NCBI GenBank assembly: GCA_030696105.1
Contig: JAUYNJ010000002.1
Coordinates: forward strand, 3,764 to 67,763
From: a bacterium
GTDB taxonomy: Bacteria > Patescibacteriota > Patescibacteriia > Patescibacteriales > UBA12465
Length of the DNA: 64,000 nt
Direction: 5' to 3'
The notes beneath the pieces were generated by a model. The model did no database searches and was not told the DNA's origin. It was given only the letters and a program-made list of their open reading frames with translations. Numbering within the stretch: the first letter of the stretch is position 1; each line of letters starts with the position of its first letter. The position numbers were made by a program, and so were the translations under genes. Below are positions 1 through 56,827 of the stretch, in pieces.

Positions 1-60
1 AATATTAATTTGTAAAATGTTGTTTGCGATATTTGAAAGACCTGTATTATAGCATAAAAA

Positions 61-89
61 CACCTCTTTTGCAATCGTGCAAAGAGGTG
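61..89 (-). terminator. Terminator-like hairpin downstream of the 270..575 gene
   Basis: Inverted repeat CACCTCTTTTGCA / TGCAAAGAGGTG. On the minus strand it is followed by TTTTTAT. Confidence 0.45.
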
Positions 90-269
90 ATTTTAAGTAT
101 ATATGATATTTAATTCTTATTTCGAGGTTCTTGCCAGTCTAAACTAAACTATTTTTAGTAGCTAGTCATGTTAATGATAAATCTTACAATTCCGTATAAA
201 GCCAATCCTCCAACTACTACCGCTAAGCCTTTGGATAAAAAATCAAAAGTGTTAATTTTTTTCATACCG

Positions 270-575
270 TTATATTATTCCTTTGTCTTTTCTAATTTGC
301 TTATCTTTAATTAGACTATAAATACCCATTACAACTAAAGCTAGGCCTACCACGGTTACTTTAAATATGCCATCCACTAAATTCACTAGAAATATAGCCA
401 GTATCAATACTACTAATATCCAGTATGTTGTTTTATACCCCTTTCCCAAAGGTAAAAGAGTTGCGTTTTTACACTTAGGACATTTAGCTGTTCTAAAGCC
501 TGCTAAATTATACTTGGCCTTGCTTTCAAACTTTTCTTTGCATTGCGAACAATAGAATTGTTTAAGACGAGACAT
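270..575 (-). CDS. Hypothetical zinc-ribbon membrane protein
   Basis: 101-aa ORF. The N-terminus has paired Cys motifs (CSQCKEKF...CPKCKN), followed by two hydrophobic helices. No family recognised. Confidence 0.5.
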   Translation of the reverse strand: MSRLKQFYCSQCKEKFESKAKYNLAGFRTAKCPKCKNATLLPLGKGYKTTYWILVVLILAIFLVNLVDGIFKVTVVGLALVVMGIYSLIKDKQIRKDKGII

Positions 576-682
576 ACTTTTTAATAATTATTTTTAGCAA
601 ATAAGTTTGTTTGGGGTCAGTATTGGGAATAGATTAGAGGTATTAGCTTGTTCTGAGTAGAGAATAATTGGCTTCTGTAGGG

Positions 683-1084
683 TTATGATGCTATAAAACC
701 AAAATAACTTAAAGTTGGTTTTATGTTTGGTGCTAAATTTTCTTTATCTAAATCGGCAATATCTATCCAGCGCCACTCTCTTATATCATCCCCTGGAGTT
801 ATCTCGCCAATTCTTTTTGCTAAATAGTGCGCCAAAATTACGCTCGTTTGAAATCCGTCAATTTCTTTTTCGGTGTAATAAAAGAAAGGAGAGTTCTCCA
901 TTATTTCTATATCTATTCCCATCTCTTCTTTAACCTCTCGTTGAGCGGACTCTTTCAAATTAGCTTCATCTTCTTTAACTCTTCCTCCGCAGAATTTCCA
1001 AAAATCATCGCTCCCGTGTTTATCCAATAACACCTTATTATCCTCCACGATGACCGGGCCGGCTGCAATTATAATTTTAGACAT
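683..1084 (-). CDS. NUDIX hydrolase
   Basis: 133-aa ORF with the Nudix box GGRVKEDEANLKESAQREVKEEMGI (GX5EX7REUXEEXGU pattern). Confidence 0.8.
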   Translation of the reverse strand: MSKIIIAAGPVIVEDNKVLLDKHGSDDFWKFCGGRVKEDEANLKESAQREVKEEMGIDIEIMENSPFFYYTEKEIDGFQTSVILAHYLAKRIGEITPGDDIREWRWIDIADLDKENLAPNIKPTLSYFGFIAS

Positions 1085-1199
1085 ATATTCATTATTTACA
1101 TTGATCGTATTCTGATTATACCATGTAGCTTAATGGTCTCCAAAAAATAAAAAAGGGAGGTCTGATGTTTTAGACTCCCTCAAAAATTTTCTTGCTACT

Positions 1200-1670
1200 T
1201 TAAGTTAAATAGAATTCAATTGCGTAGCCGACTTTTACTCCAGTCACCTCCTTGAGCTCAATATCGAAAAGTTCATTAATCATAATAAAATCTTTAAAGA
1301 ACTTGTCGTAAAATTCTCTACTTGCCTCATAGTTTGCACCGGGAGCAATAAAATGTTGATAACCAATAATGTAGGGTGAGTTTGTTAATGACCGAAAAAT
1401 AACTTCAGCAAGATAGTCGAGGTTAGTTTTTTTACCACTAAAGAGGTTGAGGCTTTTCAGTTTCTCCGAAACTTCCTGCTTCATAATAGCGACAAACTCA
1501 GTCGAGCATCTTGAGGTAATTTCCTGTTTCATGCAGTTAATCAACTCAACTTCCGCAAATCCTTTTTGTTTTTCGATTCTTTCAGTTATCACGATCAAGC
1601 CCGTCAGATTAGAGGCAACATCTTTGTACTGATTCAAGTAATCAGCAAAATCTTTTTCTTTTGTGTGCAT
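1200..1670 (-). CDS. Hypothetical protein
   Basis: 156-aa ORF downstream of a consensus promoter at 1800..1828. No motif recognised. Confidence 0.45.
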   Translation of the reverse strand: MHTKEKDFADYLNQYKDVASNLTGLIVITERIEKQKGFAEVELINCMKQEITSRCSTEFVAIMKQEVSEKLKSLNLFSGKKTNLDYLAEVIFRSLTNSPYIIGYQHFIAPGANYEASREFYDKFFKDFIMINELFDIELKEVTGVKVGYAIEFYLT

Positions 1671-1799
1671 GATTTCAAGTTTTAAGGTTTGTAAATTTGA
1701 TTAATGACTAAAACCACCTTCCGCCAGCAGTCGGATTAAGACGATCTTGGTAATTAACCAAATTTAACCTCCTTTGTTAAAGTTCAATTGTAACCACGA

Positions 1800-1828
1800 A
1801 TTATAATAAATTAGTCTATATTTGTCAA
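1800..1828 (-). promoter_or_regulatory. Consensus sigma70-type promoter reading leftward
   Basis: On the minus strand: TTGACA (1828..1823), a 17-nt spacer, then TATAAT (1805..1800). It lies about 130 nt upstream of the ATG at 1670. Confidence 0.6.
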
Positions 1829-1924
1829 GTGATGTGACATTGCGGGAGATTATAGTGCGGCTACGACACCCTCCTGATAGCTGGCGGCGCTTATCTCGCT
1901 ATCCTCGACAATGCTATCCTGCGT

Positions 1925-1970
1925 CTACATAATAAAAACACAGTACTTTGTACTGTGTTTTATTATGTAG
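1925..1970. repeat. AT-rich inverted repeat (about 21-bp arms, 3-nt loop)
   Basis: CTACATAATAAAAACACAGTAC ttt GTACTGTGTTTTATTATGTAG with one bulged A. No flanking T-run on either strand, so it is not a classical terminator. Confidence 0.6.
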
Positions 1971-2041
1971 TATACGCGGCGGAGAGCTTGGTACTATATT
2001 GGAAAAATGATTAACACTAATAGCGGTCTTTAAAAATAAAA

Positions 2042-2064
2042 AAGAAGCTGGTTTAGGGCTTCTT
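2042..2064 (-). terminator. Intrinsic terminator after the 2085..2477 gene
   Basis: Hairpin AAGAAGC...GCTTCTT. On the minus strand it is followed by TTTTTTATTTTT. Confidence 0.55.
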
Positions 2065-2084
2065 TAGTTTTTTGACAGTTATTG

Positions 2085-2477
2085 TCAAAGCTCTTCTAAA
2101 ATTTCGATTTCCTGCTCTAATTCTATTAAACCGCTCTGGATTTTAGAGATATAATCTTTTTTGCTCTTTATTCTTGTGCTCACAAGTTCTTTAAATGCTT
2201 CATCAATTTTTTCTTTGGTACTTTTTCCAAATGGCAAGATGATTGCACCAATAAGGATGATAACGATTGCTAAGCAAACAGTAAAGACGGAGACTTTAAA
2301 TAACATTGATAATAATTCCGAAGATTGTGGCAGAAAGAACCAGGCAACGATGCAAAAAGTAGTATAGAGAATTAAAAGTGACTTTAATGTAACCATTAAT
2401 TGCTTGGTTTTTCTGTGAAGTCTAACTTTTTGAGATGCTTCATCTCGTAAATTTTCAATTAATTTTTCTTTTGTCAT
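2085..2477 (-). CDS. Hypothetical membrane protein with coiled-coil ends
   Basis: 130-aa ORF with two central hydrophobic helices (LLILYTTFCIVAWFF, VFTVCLAIVIILIGAIILPF). It starts 11 nt after the upstream ORF. Confidence 0.5.
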   Translation of the reverse strand: MTKEKLIENLRDEASQKVRLHRKTKQLMVTLKSLLILYTTFCIVAWFFLPQSSELLSMLFKVSVFTVCLAIVIILIGAIILPFGKSTKEKIDEAFKELVSTRIKSKKDYISKIQSGLIELEQEIEILEEL

Positions 2478-2488
2478 GATTTCTGTTT

Positions 2489-2785
2489 TTAAACATTAAA
2501 ACTAATTACACCTTTTACTTCAACATTAAAAATGTTCATTTCAGAATAACCAGCTTCACCTTCAAACTCCATATAGCCATTGCTACCGGGCATTTGTTTG
2601 ACTGAACTGATATTTAATCTAATTCCGCTTTCTTTTTTAACATAAAAAAATTTATTGTCAGAAAGTGAAGCAAAAAAAGCCTCTTTAGTTTCTTTAATAT
2701 CTTGATAGATACTATTTTCTTCGGAAACATTAAAGCTTCCAATTTTCTTATGCTCGTCTTTTGTTGGTTGAAATTGTAAGTACAT
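2489..2785 (-). CDS. Hypothetical protein
   Basis: 98-aa ORF downstream of the consensus promoter at 2908..2936. No motif recognised. Confidence 0.45.
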   Translation of the reverse strand: MYLQFQPTKDEHKKIGSFNVSEENSIYQDIKETKEAFFASLSDNKFFYVKKESGIRLNISSVKQMPGSNGYMEFEGEAGYSEMNIFNVEVKGVISFNV

Positions 2786-2907
2786 GATTTCTATTTTTTA
2801 AAGATTATTACTAATTCGATTAATTACTAAACTTGCCTATTTTTAGACAAACTTGGTAATTAATCAAATGTAATCTTATTTGTAAATGTCCTATTTTTTA
2901 TAACCAT

Positions 2908-2936
2908 ATTATAGCATAACAGTCAATATTTGTCAA
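2908..2936 (-). promoter_or_regulatory. Consensus sigma70-type promoter reading leftward
   Basis: On the minus strand: TTGACA (2936..2931), a 17-nt spacer, then TATAAT (2913..2908). The architecture is paralogous to the promoter at 1800..1828. Confidence 0.6.
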
Positions 2937-3086
2937 CTGGCTGATATTTTAGACCTTTAGACAAAACATTTAGCTAAACTTTGTCTAACCCTGTTTTGAT
3001 AAGCTACAAAAATAAGAGTTAAGAAAAATGGCCAATAACTTTTCTTAACTCTCTTCTGCTATAGATTAAGTATTGACCGGCCGTCC

Positions 3087-3138
3087 CCATTTTCTTTTTT
3101 TGGCGGCATCCCTCTGGGTAGCCGAAAAAAGAAAATGG
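3087..3138. repeat. 52-bp dyad: 18-bp inverted arms around a 16-nt centre, upstream of the recombinase gene
   Basis: CCATTTTCTTTTTTTGGC - ggcatccctctgggta - GCCGAAAAAAGAAAATGG. There is one T/C difference between the arms, and CCGG flanks on both sides. Confidence 0.6.
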
Positions 3139-3251
3139 CCGGTTAGGGTAAAACGTCCCCTTCTATATATATTAACTTGACTATACGCACACACCAAGAC
3201 GTTTTGTCTGGACGATAATTTAAACAAATTAATAAATTTAGCTAAAATAAT

Positions 3252-4832
3252 ATGAAATACATTCTATACGCTCGTAAGTCTAGCGAAGATAAAAGTAAGC
3301 AAATTTTGTCCTTAGAAAGTCAGGTTAATGAAATGAAAAAACTAGCTAATAATTTAGGGCTAGAAATTGAGTTGGTCTATACCGAAAGCAAGTCGGCTAA
3401 GTTGCCAAACAACAGGCCTGTGTTTTTAGAGATGTTAAAAGTAATTGAAAATAGCTCAGAGGACTATGGCATTATCTGTTGGAAGATAGATAGATTATCT
3501 AGAAACCCCATTGATAGCGGTAAGATTCAATGGTTACTGCAACAAGGTAAAATCAAAGCGATTCAAACATCTGATAGACAGTATTTGCCTAGCGATAACG
3601 TGCTACTGCTAAATATTGAAGGCTCAATGGCTAATCAGTATATTTTAGATTTAAGTAAAAATGTAAAACGTGGCATTCAAACTAAGTTAGAAAAAGGAAT
3701 GTGGCCGAACTTCGCTCCGATCGGATATCTAAATGACGGTAAGGGCGGAATATTAGTTGATACGGTAAGAGCTCGGTATATCAAAAAGATATTTAAGTTA
3801 TATGCGACTGGTAATTATACGATGAAAGAATTAGCTAATTTGATGTATGAATCTGGTTTTAGAAGTAGAAGTAATATTAAATATCATAAAAGCAAAATCT
3901 ATAAACTAATTAATGATTCTTTTTATTGTGGCCTTATGCAATTTCACGGTAAAGAATATGAGGGTAAATATGAAACACTAATATCTAGAAAATTATTTAG
4001 TGATTGCCAAAAAGTAATGGAATTAAAACAACATCCCAAAAAGAAGATAGAGCATTTTCATTTTAGAGGACTAATGACTTGTGAAAAATGTGGCTGTTTA
4101 CTTACTGCCTCAAGGAAGAAAAATAAATATGTTTATTATTACTGCACTAATGGACGAGGTGGTTGTAGCGAGCATAATCACTATCTAAAAGAGGAGGAAG
4201 TGATTAAGCAGATGTCTAAAGTTTTTGATTATATGAAAGTTGATGAAGATGAAATAGAAATGATGCACGCTAATTCGCTAGAGCTGTTAGTTAATAATAA
4301 CCCTGATAGACGTGAGTATCTAGAAGTTAAACACAGCCTTGAAAATGAGCTTAAGAGATTTGAAAATAGAAAAGACGAACTCTTTAACCTGTTGCTTGAT
4401 AAATCTATTTCTAAAGAAGAATTTGAAACTAAAGAATTAATAATTAAAAATGAGATAAATAATTTTACTAAGGCTCTAAAAAAACTAGAGGATGAGCAAG
4501 AAGTGGTGCTGACTGCAGAAACTTTGGAACTTACCAAAGAATTCTTTTTATCCCCTAAAAAGCAGAAAAAAGCGTTTTTGAAAGTTAGTTTAGATGATAA
4601 AAGAAAAATGCTATCTGGACTAGTTTGGAACTTATCCATAGACAACAAAAAATTAGCTAAGGTTAGTTTCAAAGAACCCTTTGAAACCCTAGCTAATTCT
4701 GCTAAAAACACCGATATTGACAATCTGCGGAGAGGGGGAGATTCGAACTCCCGAAGGGCTTTCACCCTTGCCGCTTTTCGAGAGCGGTGCTTTCAACCAC
4801 TCAGCCACCTCTCCTGCTTACTATTGCAATAG
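3252..4832 (+). CDS. Large serine recombinase (integrase)
   Basis: 526-aa ORF. The N-terminus is a resolvase-type catalytic domain (YARKSSEDKSKQILSLESQ, WKIDRLSRN). It is followed by a recombinase domain, a Cys-rich zinc ribbon (CEKCGC...YYYCTNGRGGC) and a long coiled coil. The last ~35 codons are antisense to tRNA-Ser, so the true or ancestral C-terminus is uncertain. Confidence 0.85.
   Translation: MKYILYARKSSEDKSKQILSLESQVNEMKKLANNLGLEIELVYTESKSAKLPNNRPVFLEMLKVIENSSEDYGIICWKIDRLSRNPIDSGKIQWLLQQGKIKAIQTSDRQYLPSDNVLLLNIEGSMANQYILDLSKNVKRGIQTKLEKGMWPNFAPIGYLNDGKGGILVDTVRARYIKKIFKLYATGNYTMKELANLMYESGFRSRSNIKYHKSKIYKLINDSFYCGLMQFHGKEYEGKYETLISRKLFSDCQKVMELKQHPKKKIEHFHFRGLMTCEKCGCLLTASRKKNKYVYYYCTNGRGGCSEHNHYLKEEEVIKQMSKVFDYMKVDEDEIEMMHANSLELLVNNNPDRREYLEVKHSLENELKRFENRKDELFNLLLDKSISKEEFETKELIIKNEINNFTKALKKLEDEQEVVLTAETLELTKEFFLSPKKQKKAFLKVSLDDKRKMLSGLVWNLSIDNKKLAKVSFKEPFETLANSAKNTDIDNLRRGGDSNSRRAFTLAAFRERCFQPLSHLSCLLLQ
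4728..4814 (-). tRNA. tRNA-Ser (anticodon CGA), type II with long variable arm
   Basis: Manual cloverleaf: acceptor GGAGAGG/CCTCTCC, anticodon arm CCGCT-CTCGAAA-AGCGG, 18-nt variable arm, T-arm GGGAG-TTCGAAT-CTCCC, discriminator G. Confidence 0.9.
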
Positions 4833-17031: not shown

Positions 17032-17103
17032 GGTCCCTTCGTCTAACGGTTAGGACACCAGGTTTTCATCCTGGTAACAGGGGTTCGACTCCCCTAGGGA
17101 CTA
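17032..17103 (+). tRNA. tRNA-Glu (anticodon TTC)
   Basis: Manual cloverleaf: acceptor GGTCCCT/AGGGACT (G1-U72), anticodon arm CCAGG-TTTTCAT-CCTGG, T-arm AGGGG-TTCGACT-CCCCT. Confidence 0.9.
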
Positions 17104-17112
17104 CAAAACAAC

Positions 17113-17139
17113 AAAGACAAGCGCTGCTTGTCTTTTTTG
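17113..17139 (+). terminator. Intrinsic terminator after tRNA-Glu
   Basis: AGACAAGC gct GCTTGTCT followed by TTTTTTGTTTTG. Confidence 0.7.
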
Positions 17140-17276
17140 TTTTGTCATTATCGAGCCGGGAGTCGAACAGGTCAGGAGAGAGACAAGTCTGAGCCGCTAT
17201 TACGGGCGGAGAAGACGTAGGTGAACGTCCGCTAAGCATCCTGGGGGATGCTTAGCGCTGACCAGTGAGCGCGATA

Positions 17277-17294
17277 ACTCCCCCTGGGGACTAC
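17277..17294 (+). repeat. Partial direct copy of the tRNA-Glu 3' end
   Basis: ACTCCCCCTGGGGACTAC compared with tRNA positions 17088..17104, ACTCCCCTAGGGACTAC. Confidence 0.6.
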
Positions 17295-27151: not shown

Positions 27152-27727
27152 TTATAAATCTTTACGTAGGCGAATTTCGTAGGCCATCTGCTCAAGTTTG
27201 CGTAGATGTCCACGCGCTTGGTCATATTTAGTACGTAAATAGCCGGTTAAATCGAAGTCTAGTAAGCTGTTCATTATCTCTTCAGCCTTCTCCTTCATTT
27301 CGGCCACGCTTTCGTATTTACCCTTGGCGGCGCGATTGGTAGCAATACGTACCATTTCACCGATGAGGTCGCAGAGTCCACCGAGGTAACTGTCGTAGCC
27401 GAGGGTTAGGCCCTTTATTGGGGTAATTTTTTTGCCAGTGACGACAAAAGAGAGAGTTTTGGCTTCAACGTATTCTTCAGCGGCAGCGTGATAAGCGCCT
27501 TCTTCACGTAAACGAGTTACTCCAAACTCTTTTTCCATTTTTTTCAGCAAAGTCTCCATTGTTTCCAGCTTTTCTTCCGCTACCTTTATTTCTTCTCGTT
27601 GCAAGGCAAATATGGTTTTCTTGGCCTGGAACAAGACATCGTTTGAGCGACTGATAATTTGACGTCTTTCTTGCTCACGCTTTTTGTAATCAGCTTTTAA
27701 TTTGTTGACGAAGGAGGCGTTAATCAT
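27152..27727 (-). CDS. Translin-family-like helical protein
   Basis: 191-aa ORF. All-helical, with YLGGLCDLIGEMVR resembling the translin family signature. Recalled from memory, not searched. Confidence 0.5.
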   Translation of the reverse strand: MINASFVNKLKADYKKREQERRQIISRSNDVLFQAKKTIFALQREEIKVAEEKLETMETLLKKMEKEFGVTRLREEGAYHAAAEEYVEAKTLSFVVTGKKITPIKGLTLGYDSYLGGLCDLIGEMVRIATNRAAKGKYESVAEMKEKAEEIMNSLLDFDLTGYLRTKYDQARGHLRKLEQMAYEIRLRKDL

Positions 27728-40465: not shown

Positions 40466-40541
40466 TGGTGCGCCTAGATGGAATTGAACCATCGACCCCC
40501 GCTTTATAAGAGCGGTGCTCTCACCCCTGAGCTATAGGCGC
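40466..40541 (-). tRNA. tRNA-Ile (anticodon TAT) with encoded CCA
   Basis: Manual cloverleaf: acceptor GCGCCTA/TAGGCGC, D-arm GCTC-AGGGGTGA-GAGC, anticodon arm CCGCT-CTTATAA-AGCGG (U33, A37), T-arm GATGG-TTCAATT-CCATC, then ACCA. Confidence 0.8.
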
Positions 40542-55832: not shown

Positions 55833-55935
55833 TTTGGGGTCACGGAAGGACTTCAATTTTACTGACCTTATTATAGGTATTATTACGCATTTTAGCAACT
55901 CACAAAAAAACCGCTAAAAAGCGATTTCTTGCTTT

Positions 55936-55980
55936 GTCGGGCTGCCCGGATCCGCCAGCTGGCGGAGAACCGGGATGATC
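55936..55980 (-). repeat. Pseudo-copy of the tRNA-Pro(CGG) T-arm and 3' acceptor, with a 16-nt perfect palindrome in the T-loop
   Basis: On the + strand, TGTCGGGCTGCCCGGA is identical to 55991..56006. It is followed by TCCGCCAGCTGGCGGA, which replaces ATT of the T-loop, and then by GAACCGGGAT as in the tRNA. Confidence 0.7.
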
Positions 55981-55992
55981 CTTCCTAAATGT

Positions 55993-56064
55993 CGGGCTGC
56001 CCGGAATTGAACCGGGATCACACGCACCCGAAGCGTATATAATAGCCTTTATACCACAGCCCGT
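55993..56064 (-). tRNA. tRNA-Pro (anticodon CGG), non-canonical AT-rich D-arm
   Basis: Acceptor CGGGCTG/CAGCCCG, anticodon arm TACGC-TTCGGGT-GCGTG, T-arm CCCGG-TTCAATT-CCGGG, discriminator A. The D region GTATAAAGGCTATTATA folds poorly. Confidence 0.65.
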
Positions 56065-56116
56065 GGCCTTATTATTGCCGTCTCGCCGCGTGCGAACGCA
56101 GTAAGCTATACGCGGT

Positions 56117-56189
56117 GGACTTGAGGGGACTCGAACCCCTTACCTCTGCAATGCGAATGCAGCGCTCTACCAGATGAGCTACAAGCCCC
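56117..56189 (-). tRNA. tRNA-Ala (anticodon CGC)
   Basis: Acceptor GGGCTTG/CAAGTCC with the G3-U70 identity pair, anticodon arm CTGCA-TTCGCAT-TGCAG, T-arm AGGGG-TTCGAGT-CCCCT, discriminator A. Confidence 0.85.
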
Positions 56190-56253
56190 TTCGCCAGCCG
56201 GCGGACTGGCCGATTTTCCCAGGCCGACAGTTCGCTCGGGTAAGCCGAAAAAG

Positions 56254-56272
56254 TCGGGGTGCCGGGAATTGG
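56254..56272 (-). repeat. 19-nt exact copy of the tRNA-Pro(GGG) 3' end (T-loop to discriminator)
   Basis: GTCGGGGTGCCGGGAATTG at 56254..56272 equals 56442..56460. Confidence 0.8.
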
Positions 56273-56442
56273 TCACGGTCGCTAAGCCTCGCTTGTCACG
56301 TATAGCTCGCTTCGCTCACACGTGACTGCGCTCGCTAAGCGCCCCGACCCGGCCTCGCGATGCCTTCGGCATATCGCTCCGGCTTTCAATTCCGGACACG
56401 AGCCACGCAGGTGGCTCGTTCACCTCTCCTCGTTTCACTCGT

Positions 56443-56513
56443 CGGGGTGCCGGGAATTGAACCCGGTCTACATGCACCCCATGCATGCGTACTACCGGTA
56501 TACTACACCCCGG
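56443..56513 (-). tRNA. tRNA-Pro (anticodon GGG)
   Basis: Acceptor CGGGGTG/CACCCCG, D-arm GTAT-ACCGGTA-GTAC, anticodon arm CATGC-ATGGGGT-GCATG, T-arm CCGGG-TTCAATT-CCCGG, discriminator A. Confidence 0.85.
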
Positions 56514-56548
56514 AAAAACTTGCTAACAATAGTGTAAAGATAATCGCC

Positions 56549-56827
56549 TTAGAAGTCAAATTCGGGGGCTGAGACAGTGCTTTCTTTAGTTATTACGCGG
56601 TCTTTATACTGCTCTTGGAGCTCGGCAATGCGCTCAGCGGGAACATCTTTAAAGATGCGCCCTGGCAGCTCAGAAGGGTTCTGGCCATTGTAATTGCGCT
56701 CGAACCATTCTTCATCGGTCACGAAGCGATTACGCTCCCCACCGCCAAAGGTGACGCCGGAGGCTTCTAACTTTTCTTCGAACTTCTTTTGAATTGGATC
56801 TACGCTTGGAGTTTCAAATGATTTCAT
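56549..56827 (-). CDS. Small hypothetical protein
   Basis: 92-aa ORF. Acidic, with no motif recognised. It lies directly upstream of the tRNA cluster on the same strand. Confidence 0.5.
   Translation of the reverse strand: MKSFETPSVDPIQKKFEEKLEASGVTFGGGERNRFVTDEEWFERNYNGQNPSELPGRIFKDVPAERIAELQEQYKDRVITKESTVSAPEFDF

Follow-up and report, generated by a model that had tools for sequence, protein, structure and literature searches.

GC-rich inserts that lie directly 3' of intact tRNA genes, each ending in a second copy of the tRNA 3' end, were analysed in a 64-kb stretch of the bacterial contig JAUYNJ010000002.1 (the window, meaning that whole stretch of DNA). We put at about one half the probability that these inserts belong to two related families of non-coding, GC-rich insertion elements of ~120-190 nt that sit directly 3' of tRNA genes in one lineage of Patescibacteria. 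The two families, called type A (behind tRNA-Pro(GGG)) and type B (behind tRNA-Glu, tRNA-Ala and possibly tRNA-Val), share a common plan: an intact tRNA gene, a hairpin, a segment complementary to the tRNA T-loop (the anti-T segment), a multi-helix core, and a direct tRNA repeat that runs from the T-loop to the 3' end. The elements were copied to different tRNA genes, and their structure was kept by compensatory substitutions. The finding is real, and it is accounted for by no catalogued family.

The window, at ~42% GC, contains one bacterial 16S rRNA gene and eight tRNA genes, and the closest relatives of its proteins are encoded in metagenome-assembled genomes of Patescibacteria (candidate phyla radiation, CPR). 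Seven of the eight tRNA genes have no encoded CCA; the only one with an encoded 3' CCA is tRNA-Ile(TAT), at 40466-40541 (-). Syntenic loci of relatives (given below by L numbers) were fetched via TrpRS, TsaD and LCP, the last being a cell-wall assembly protein encoded beside the Pro-Ala-Pro tRNA cluster, and the resulting dataset comprised four type A loci and four to five type B loci. One locus, L090, is an independent Logan assembly of the same organism as the window. In the 64 kb, two large and one to two small inserts are present, all of them at tRNA genes.

Inserts behind tRNA-Pro and tRNA-Glu

Four intact tRNA genes and the 3'-end copies were confirmed, ARAGORN and Rfam agreeing on the intact genes (Table 1). 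Downstream of tRNA-Pro(GGG), the type A insert consists of a 5' motif, hairpin 1, the anti-T segment, hairpin 2, a long stem with hairpin 3, and a 3' end that reads ...GCGACCGTGAC. The exact copy of the tRNA that follows starts at C56 of the T-loop, and the same left boundary was found in L006, L101, L094 and L004. The tail copy does not include T54-T55 (gtgac|CAATT in the window, ggagc|CGATT in L006), and the full 7-nt T-loop is not duplicated. A preliminary description of this DNA had already reported both features; they are present, but the insert is 169 nt long, not 170 nt at 56273..56441, and the coordinates given for the 19-nt copy were one base off. The hairpins GAGCCAC/GTGGCTC and GTCACGT/ACGTGAC reported with them were recovered, as was a hairpin with a UUCG loop, although UUCG lies on the strand antisense to the tRNAs and the loop in the tRNA sense is GAAG.

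Homologues of the type A insert occupy the same Pro(GGG) site in L006, L101 and L094 (where it is cut by the contig end), the window and L090 representing one organism. A shorter insert of ~66 nt in L004 has the same T-loop boundary, a 33-nt repeat and hairpins of the TCCGCC/GGCGGA type, and with this short relative included the repeat lengths are 19, 33 and 43 nt. The type A covariance model, run on 687 kb of relatives, matched the five type A instances only, with scores of 178-191 bits, and did not detect type B. In L101 (3179-3400, +) the 5' motif GAGTGAAACGA is present four times: it opens the element, lies in both the hairpin 2 and the hairpin 3 loop, and recurs past the tail copy, and the loop of hairpin 3 in the window has the related GAGCGAAGCGAG; this could be a protein-binding motif or the footprint of nested insertions.

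The tRNA-Glu locus has the layout that had been noticed before, namely a terminator hairpin, a GC-rich core that holds a 12-bp hairpin (CCGCTAAGCATCC/GGATGCTTAGCG), and an imperfect tail copy. Type B homologues were found 3' of tRNA-Ala in L094/L096, L101 and L103. In L095 the left half of type B, with three single-nucleotide differences (one of them in the anti-T segment), is joined to tRNA-Val(TAC), and beyond that left half the sequence is identical to the Ala-linked copy of L094. The L095 junction either reflects a second copy or a recombinant that truly exists or is chimeric across a repeat; in both cases it implies at least two nearly identical type B copies in one population. As the preliminary description had supposed, the inserts form sequence families, and type B has changed its host tRNA, clearly between Glu and Ala and probably also to Val. 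Furthermore, the element restarts after the tail copy in L094 and L101, with repeats of at least 30 nt, 43 nt and ~85 nt (the last being the type B repeat of L101); such restarts are the expected product of repeated recombination into an occupied site, or of a longer-than-unit intermediate.

Table 1. Features of the tRNA-Glu locus and the Pro-Ala-Pro cluster, in window coordinates
Feature	Position	Strand	Basis or remark
tRNA-Glu(TTC), intact, type B host gene	17032-17104	+	ARAGORN, Rfam
Terminator-like hairpin with T-run, and linker, between tRNA-Glu and type B core	17105-17157	+	
Type B core, starts with GGGAGTCGAAC (17158-17168), ends with AGTGAGCGCGATA	17158-17276	+	
Imperfect copy of tRNA-Glu 3' end, AACTCCCCCTGGGGACTAC vs GACTCCCCTAGGGACTAC	17277-17294	+	
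55-nt insert 3' of tRNA-Pro(CGG): 10-nt spacer and partial tRNA copy	55936-55990	-	
tRNA-Pro(CGG), intact	55991-56063	-	ARAGORN, Rfam
GC-rich spacer between tRNA-Ala and tRNA-Pro(CGG), 50 nt	56064-56113	-	5-16 nt here in insert-free relatives
tRNA-Ala(CGC), intact	56114-56188	-	ARAGORN, Rfam
Extra 64-nt hairpin-rich spacer ahead of tRNA-Ala	56189-56252	-	Sequence, comparison with relatives
Near-palindrome TCCGCCGGCTGGCGAA, two mismatches to TCCGCCAGCTGGCGGA, adjoins tRNA-Ala	56190-56205		Within the 64-nt spacer
Exact 19-nt direct copy CAATTCCCGGCACCCCGAC of tRNA-Pro(GGG)	56253-56271	-	T-loop C56 to base after discriminator
Type A insert, 169 nt, ~62% GC	56272-56440	-	Sequence, homologues, covariance model
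Type A long stem on GCTTAGCG/GCTTAGCG repeats, including hairpin 3	Hairpin 3: 56295-56326	-	
Type A hairpin 2	56357-56377	-	
Type A anti-T segment, TCCGGAATTGAA	56385-56396	-	Complement search with shuffles
Type A hairpin 1	56399-56418	-	
Type A 5' motif GAGTGAAACGAGG	56428-56440	-	
tRNA-Pro(GGG), intact, type A host gene	56441-56512	-	ARAGORN; Rfam tRNA 55.8 bits

Complementarity to the T-loop and conservation of the fold

In both families the anti-T segment lies 46-53 nt past the tRNA, just after the first hairpin. The Pro element of the window carries GGAATTGAA, an exact 9-nt complement of the tRNA-Pro(GGG) T-loop TTCAATTCC (reached by 12 of 2000 shuffles), and the Pro element of L101 carries CGGGAATTGAA, which complements its own T-loop and T-stem over 11 nt (0/2000). 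The segment of the window Glu element, GGGAGTCGAAC, is an exact 11-nt complement of the tRNA-Glu T-loop/T-stem GTTCGACTCCC, a match that was also reached by none of 2000 shuffles, and the Ala elements of L094 and L101 have GGACTCGAAC against the target GTTCGAGTCC (2/2000 and 1/2000, respectively). A perfect complement of 9-11 nt is thus present in five of six full elements; in the exception, L006, an 11-nt pairing of the segment with its own tRNA requires one G.U pair. In a cross-matrix of segments against tRNAs the values were highest on the cognate tRNA, and a G/C switch between the Glu and Ala segments is mirrored by the T-loop (helix 1 of type B).

The inserts are also predicted to fold unusually well. 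The window Pro insert with its copy (187 nt) folds better than 200 of 200 shuffles (z = -4.0), the Glu insert has z = -4.3, and z ranges from -4.0 to -4.5 among the inserts. In the consensus folds, pairing between the anti-T segment and the tail copy downstream of it closes the multi-helix core (helix P1 in type A, helices 1-2 in type B). In the four sequences of type A, standard pairs fill 94.6% of the pair cells, and both sides have changed in 19 of 50 pairs, whereas controls in which the partner was slid by 1-3 columns were 27-42% paired with at most four double-change pairs, and no shuffle reached the observed values. The helix between anti-T segment and tail copy (type A helix 3) is 97% paired; pairing of the type A 5' region with the acceptor 3' strand (helix 1) is 73%, with no covariation. 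The three type B sequences gave 91.8% pairing, with 11 of 40 pairs compensatory and similar controls. Conserved unpaired motifs accompany the helices, being GAGTGAAACGAGG (5' end), GAAAGCCGGAG, CGAGGCCGGG and GCGACCGTGAC (3' end) in type A and AGYGAGCGCGAWA in type B. A coding reading of GAAAGCCGGAG was rejected, its frames differing between the window and L006. Taken together, these data speak strongly, though not conclusively, for selection that acts on a fold, of RNA or of a single strand, the sequences being few and palindromes being able to self-correct.

Occurrence among relatives and searches for further copies

Compact Pro-Ala-Pro clusters with spacers of 5-16 nt were found in seven relatives (L001, L002, L005, L010, L092, L093 and L098), and tRNA-Glu has no insert in L106-L115, a well-sampled relative population in which a terminator and islands that vary between strains lie downstream of the gene. 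Given these empty sites, the inserts are insertions, and the proposal that they are anchored in the tRNA T-loop or 3' end with no resident integrase was borne out. In the LCP tree, holders of type A are scattered among insert-free relatives. Type A identity between the window and L094 is 87% (LCP 72%), between the window and L101 80% (LCP 69%), and between the window and L006 67% (LCP 49%), so that type A diverged approximately in step with its host, which fits old vertical inheritance under constraint with repeated loss. The earlier idea of repeated insertion holds as regards families and empty sites, but not as frequent recent jumping of type A.

The islands in L106-L115 (~100-3786, 3' of tRNA-Glu) encode, depending on the strain, HTH_17 and Fic, a Macro domain, Z1 and a DNA methylase, or PLD and patatin, and the region looks like an island hotspot at the tRNA that bears type B in the window. 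For these islands, no second tail copy was found within the 4-kb flanks.

An assembly or binning artefact, i.e., chimeric joins or collapsed repeats in a metagenome-assembled genome, is hardly credible as the source of the inserts. Short-read contigs do break in elements or tRNAs (L090, L094, L103, L105), and L095 may be chimeric; however, the same insert recurs in L090, which was assembled independently. Five further assemblies, made in different projects, contain homologues that show compensatory differences, and homologous inserts were seen in NCBI, ENA and JGI assemblies. Contig ends lie inside elements or a tRNA T-arm in L105 (1-40), L091 (1-30), L094 (1) and L103 (1), and L105 stops at ggggttcg, the tRNA-Glu T-loop; such ends would be expected if the sequences are repeated or polymorphic in the sampled populations.

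The copy behind tRNA-Pro(CGG) spans the variable loop to the 3' end and reads gatcatcccggttc, palindrome, then tccgggcagcccgac, the T-loop AAT being swapped for the perfect 16-nt palindrome TCCGCCAGCTGGCGGA (55951-55966). This arrangement is as first described, except that the copy begins 10 nt, not 15 nt, after the tRNA. Exactly this 55-nt insert is absent from the closest relative, L091 (LCP 89% identical), in which the ...cagcccgac end of tRNA-Pro(CGG) runs directly into the same terminator as in the window. The 64-nt spacer ahead of tRNA-Ala is also missing in relatives, whose Pro-Ala spacer is 5-13 nt. With up to three mismatches the palindrome has three matches against 0.12 expected; the count of CGCTAAGC alone is not significant (6 against 2.5 expected, with 10 of 100 shuffles reaching 6). 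The palindrome was rejected as a dispersed repeat, TCCGCC-N4-GGCGGA occurring in 4 of 115 loci, of which the one inspected (L094) is an ordinary intergenic hairpin.

A promoter-like TTGACT-17-TACACT lies upstream of tRNA-Pro(GGG) at 56559-56531, with the same sequence in relatives, and a weak terminator-like hairpin with a T-run, which recurs in relatives and was not called by a terminator scan, follows the Pro(CGG) copy. Because the type A insert lies between these two sites, it should be co-transcribed with the tRNAs, and it would then be freed from the operon transcript by RNase Z and RNase P cuts. In L003 (5334-5399, -) the tRNA-Ala between both Pro genes is a 5'-truncated, mutated pseudogene. 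In L098 (3200-3560) and L104 (3500-3850) a PALP gene and the tRNA cluster are separated by a conserved and possibly structured stretch of ~350 nt that is richer in GC; the 601 nt scanned in L098 had no Rfam match at gathering score.

Searches for genes, known families and further copies were negative. No open reading frame (ORF) is present in any insert (55-220 nt), and the + strand ORFs 56322-56537 and 56360-56572 were dismissed as genes on account of their overlap with the tRNA. No recombinase lies beside any copy, the neighbours being TrpRS, LCP and TsaD, and no IS110, TnpB, IscB or reverse-transcriptase gene adjoins any copy or is found among the Pfam-scanned ORFs (~30 of 50 in the window). 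The sole recombinase among these is a large serine recombinase at 3252-4832 (+), with Resolvase, Recombinase and Zn_ribbon_recom domains, whose ORF runs antisense through tRNA-Ser(CGA) at 4727-4814 (-). Region 1-4700 has a low GC content (0.29-0.37) and contains NUDIX genes besides genes of unknown kind; an element integrated at tRNA-Ser is the probable explanation. The tRNA-Ser tail has no second copy in the window. As the only local candidate, and one that lies 50 kb from the cluster, this recombinase was set aside as the driver of the inserts.

At gathering score, Rfam 15 found only tRNAs and 16S in the window, L004, L006, L094 and L101, and at E <= 10 nothing except tRNAs, and no group I match, on 55850-56600; no insert matches an Rfam family. 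ARAGORN detected no transfer-messenger RNA (tmRNA) in the window. Resemblances to group I introns, tmRNA, signal recognition particle RNA and RNase P that had been suspected from motifs were dropped for lack of a model match, and the element as a degenerate tRNA duplicate was discarded, the only likeness being ~9/12 identity to the tRNA 5' end in L101. A blastn comparison with phages and plasmids gave no match. The type A pattern had three chance matches in viral contigs, in high-GC phage genes, and six chance matches in metagenome contigs; degenerate type A and B patterns gave only chance matches in coding DNA of viral contigs, and nhmmer and covariance-model searches of the fetched loci (~0.7-1.1 Mb) added no members. 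That the large-scale scans added no members is put down to the low sensitivity of exact-pattern scanning. A literature search returned nothing that resembles these inserts.

Two side observations concern other genes. The ORF at 27152-27727 (-) matches the Translin family (PF01997, E = 7e-17), which to our knowledge has rarely been reported in bacteria; eukaryotic translin-TRAX is linked to tRNA processing. In L006 (5753-5872, +) and L004 (5765-5875, +), Rfam found full-length tRNAs missed by ARAGORN, with AT-rich anticodon-loop insertions of 51 nt and 40 nt and an ambiguous anticodon (GAA or TTT); these insertions are far too short for the group I introns of Patescibacteria tRNAs.

Origin and possible roles of the inserts

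If the inserts are insertion elements, they would have entered by recombination anchored in the T-loop, with the element supplying, or being flanked by, a second tRNA tail copy, and the tRNA would thereby stay intact. The catalyst may be a recombinase encoded elsewhere and acting in trans, or homologous or illegitimate recombination with conserved tRNA sequence as the homology arm, plausibly following the uptake of DNA; the window encodes DprA. Loss would occur via recombination between the direct repeats, leaving a clean tRNA, and the circle junction of an excised type A element would read ...GTGAC-CAATTCCCGGCACCCCGAC-GAGTGAAACG.... At the RNA level, the anti-T segment may pair with the displaced tail copy and close the element into a compact, self-contained fold, in which the sequestered extra tail would be kept from competing while the neighbouring tRNAs fold and are processed. 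We propose that this sequestration is why structure and complementarity are conserved.

Several points weigh against the insertion-element reading. No enzyme, circular form, empty-site polymorphism within a population, or transcript was observed. There are just three to four sequences per family, and the large-scale, insensitive exact-pattern scans added none. Type A is found at one orthologous site only and its divergence follows the host tree, and therefore type A alone could be an old inherited RNA gene. The Val junction of L095 could be an assembly chimera across a repeat, and its anti-T segment has one mismatch to tRNA-Val. The unpaired motifs GAGTGAAACGAGG, GAAAGCCGGAG and CGAGGCCGGG suggest something beyond a passive, harmless fold, and compensatory changes in palindromes can also come from hairpin-templated mutation, with no selection on RNA.

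Known small insertions resemble the elements in part. Miniature inverted-repeat transposable elements (MITEs), repetitive extragenic palindromes and their mosaic arrays (REP/BIME), Rickettsia palindromic elements and the GC clusters of yeast mitochondria are likewise tiny, GC-rich, non-coding hairpin insertions in lower-GC genomes, sometimes in or beside RNA genes, and the 16-nt palindrome and the L004 hairpins fit this pattern. Unlike these, however, the inserts have no terminal inverted repeats and no short (2-10 bp) target duplication, the sole inverted repeat being anti-T segment versus tail copy, and they show a strict association with tRNA 3' ends, tRNA repeats of 19-85 nt, and a multi-helix junction in place of a single hairpin; within the 64-kb window their copy number is very low. 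Group I introns have been described in the anticodon loops of Patescibacteria tRNAs (PMC13011429). These introns share with the inserts the phylum, the placement of a structured RNA at a tRNA gene, and a segment complementary to both sides of the tRNA site, as in an internal guide sequence. In contrast, they fit the group I model, are of larger size and split the anticodon loop at 35/36 or 37/38, whereas here the tRNA is uninterrupted, Rfam gives no group I match (E <= 10), and there is no U.G splice-site geometry.

The preliminary description had offered att duplications as one option, and a related possibility is that the inserts are decaying scars, i.e., attL/attR remnants of integrase-borne islands or prophages that integrated in the T-loop, lost their genes and were padded by palindromic repeats, with neither function nor mobility. 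Integration of the T-loop class classically leaves direct repeats that reach from inside the T-loop to the end of the tRNA, and the likeness to such islands and prophages, and to their cis-mobilizable derivatives (CIMEs), extends to the position 3' of an intact tRNA, a repeat of this extent, empty alleles in relatives, partial tandems and, as in CIMEs, the absence of a resident integrase. Also in keeping with scars, tRNA-Ser of the window adjoins the serine recombinase and a low-GC island, strain-variable islands follow tRNA-Glu in relatives, and L004 and the Pro(CGG) copy resemble tail copies with hairpins inserted. However, the inserts are just ~120-190 nt long and have a conserved, covarying fold with an internal anti-T segment that had escaped the preliminary description; no integrase lies inside them and no integrase-bearing parent element was found; and the repeat starts at C56, so that the duplication does not take in the full 7-nt T-loop, the overlap expected of tyrosine integrases. 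Scars that arose independently would not have cores of 63-87% identity, motifs and compensatory pairs in common where the flanking spacers cannot be aligned, nor carry host-specific anti-T segments, nor recur behind different tRNAs with the same architecture, and this origin is accordingly judged quite unlikely. About as improbable is RNA-guided targeting, in which the anti-T segment would guide a trans-encoded recombinase or nuclease to T-loops and retarget by a change of guide, analogous in principle to the pairing of exon- and intron-binding sites (EBS-IBS) in group II introns. The guide-like segment matches the exact start site of the repeat, varies with the host tRNA (Pro, Glu, Ala) and keeps a constant position in both families; moreover, known guide RNAs include sizes of ~170 nt, and the IS110 bridge RNA and the omega RNA of TnpB/IscB are structured non-coding RNAs of ~150-200 nt that belong to an insertion and carry a site-matching segment. 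Unlike in those systems, there is no transposase or nuclease gene and no sequence or Rfam similarity, the consensus fold has the segment paired with the tail copy where known guides are free, and direct repeats of 19-85 nt, which such systems do not make, are present. A filled allele would also retain the target and be subject to self-targeting, and T-loops are so conserved that retargeting would amount to one or two bases.

It is rather unlikely, though less so than either of these, that the inserts are simply functional non-coding RNAs, domesticated or primary, released as stable tRNA-linked RNAs by RNase Z (5') and RNase P (3'). According to this explanation, the anti-T:tail helix and the weak pairing of the 5' region with the acceptor strand would form a tRNA-like minihelix end, with the tail duplicated by design, and this end could be recognised by RNase P, RNase Z or the CCA-adding enzyme. 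The strong covariation and conserved unpaired motifs agree with such a role, as do the location inside a promoter-terminator unit, the divergence of type A in parallel with host phylogeny (LCP identities down to 49%, implying long-term purifying selection), the G.U wobble of the L006 guide with its own tRNA, which is tolerated in RNA pairing, and a possible acceptor-like helix GGNGGUG:CACCCC. Like tmRNA, viral 3' tRNA-like structures and mascRNA, the inserts have a 3' end identical to the acceptor/T-arm strand of a tRNA, a coaxial acceptor/T minihelix is possible, and release by tRNA-processing enzymes is predicted. Unlike those RNAs, they have no ARAGORN tmRNA call and no intact T-arm, the tail strand being paired with the anti-T segment, and the acceptor-like helix is weak, lacks covariation and has no counterpart in type B. 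Furthermore, the element is missing in many close relatives and so is dispensable, no Rfam family and no recurrent neighbouring protein is associated with it, and the partial tandem restarts of L094 and L101 resemble recombination products, not gene design. Neither a functional RNA nor RNA-guided targeting is mutually exclusive with the insertion-element reading, and the alternative raised in the preliminary description, structured tRNA-like spacers in a polycistronic transcript, may hold and would be partly compatible with it as well.

A bolder reading, which we consider unlikely, is that these are protein-less, RNA-specified tRNA-homing elements, or else a CCA-receiving, tRNA-mimicking RNA in the tRNA metabolism of reduced genomes. 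In the homing version, the anti-T segment of the ~170-nt RNA would select the T-loop of a tRNA gene, or of a tRNA or pre-tRNA, for insertion by a host or trans-acting enzyme, and the spare tRNA tail would let the essential gene survive.

In practice, partial tRNA copies and contig breaks of the kind described here confuse tRNA annotation and metagenome assembly. If the inserts are RNA genes, they constitute two new structured RNA families in a phylum whose non-coding RNA biology is almost unexplored. An anti-T segment that proved to be a true guide would offer a compact recognition module, retargetable by nature, for a site that is conserved universally. The inserts, if mobile, would rank with the smallest site-specific insertion elements known, and would illustrate how, in a streamlined genome, such an element can live within essential tRNA operons, namely by making a second copy of the tRNA tail and folding itself out of the way.

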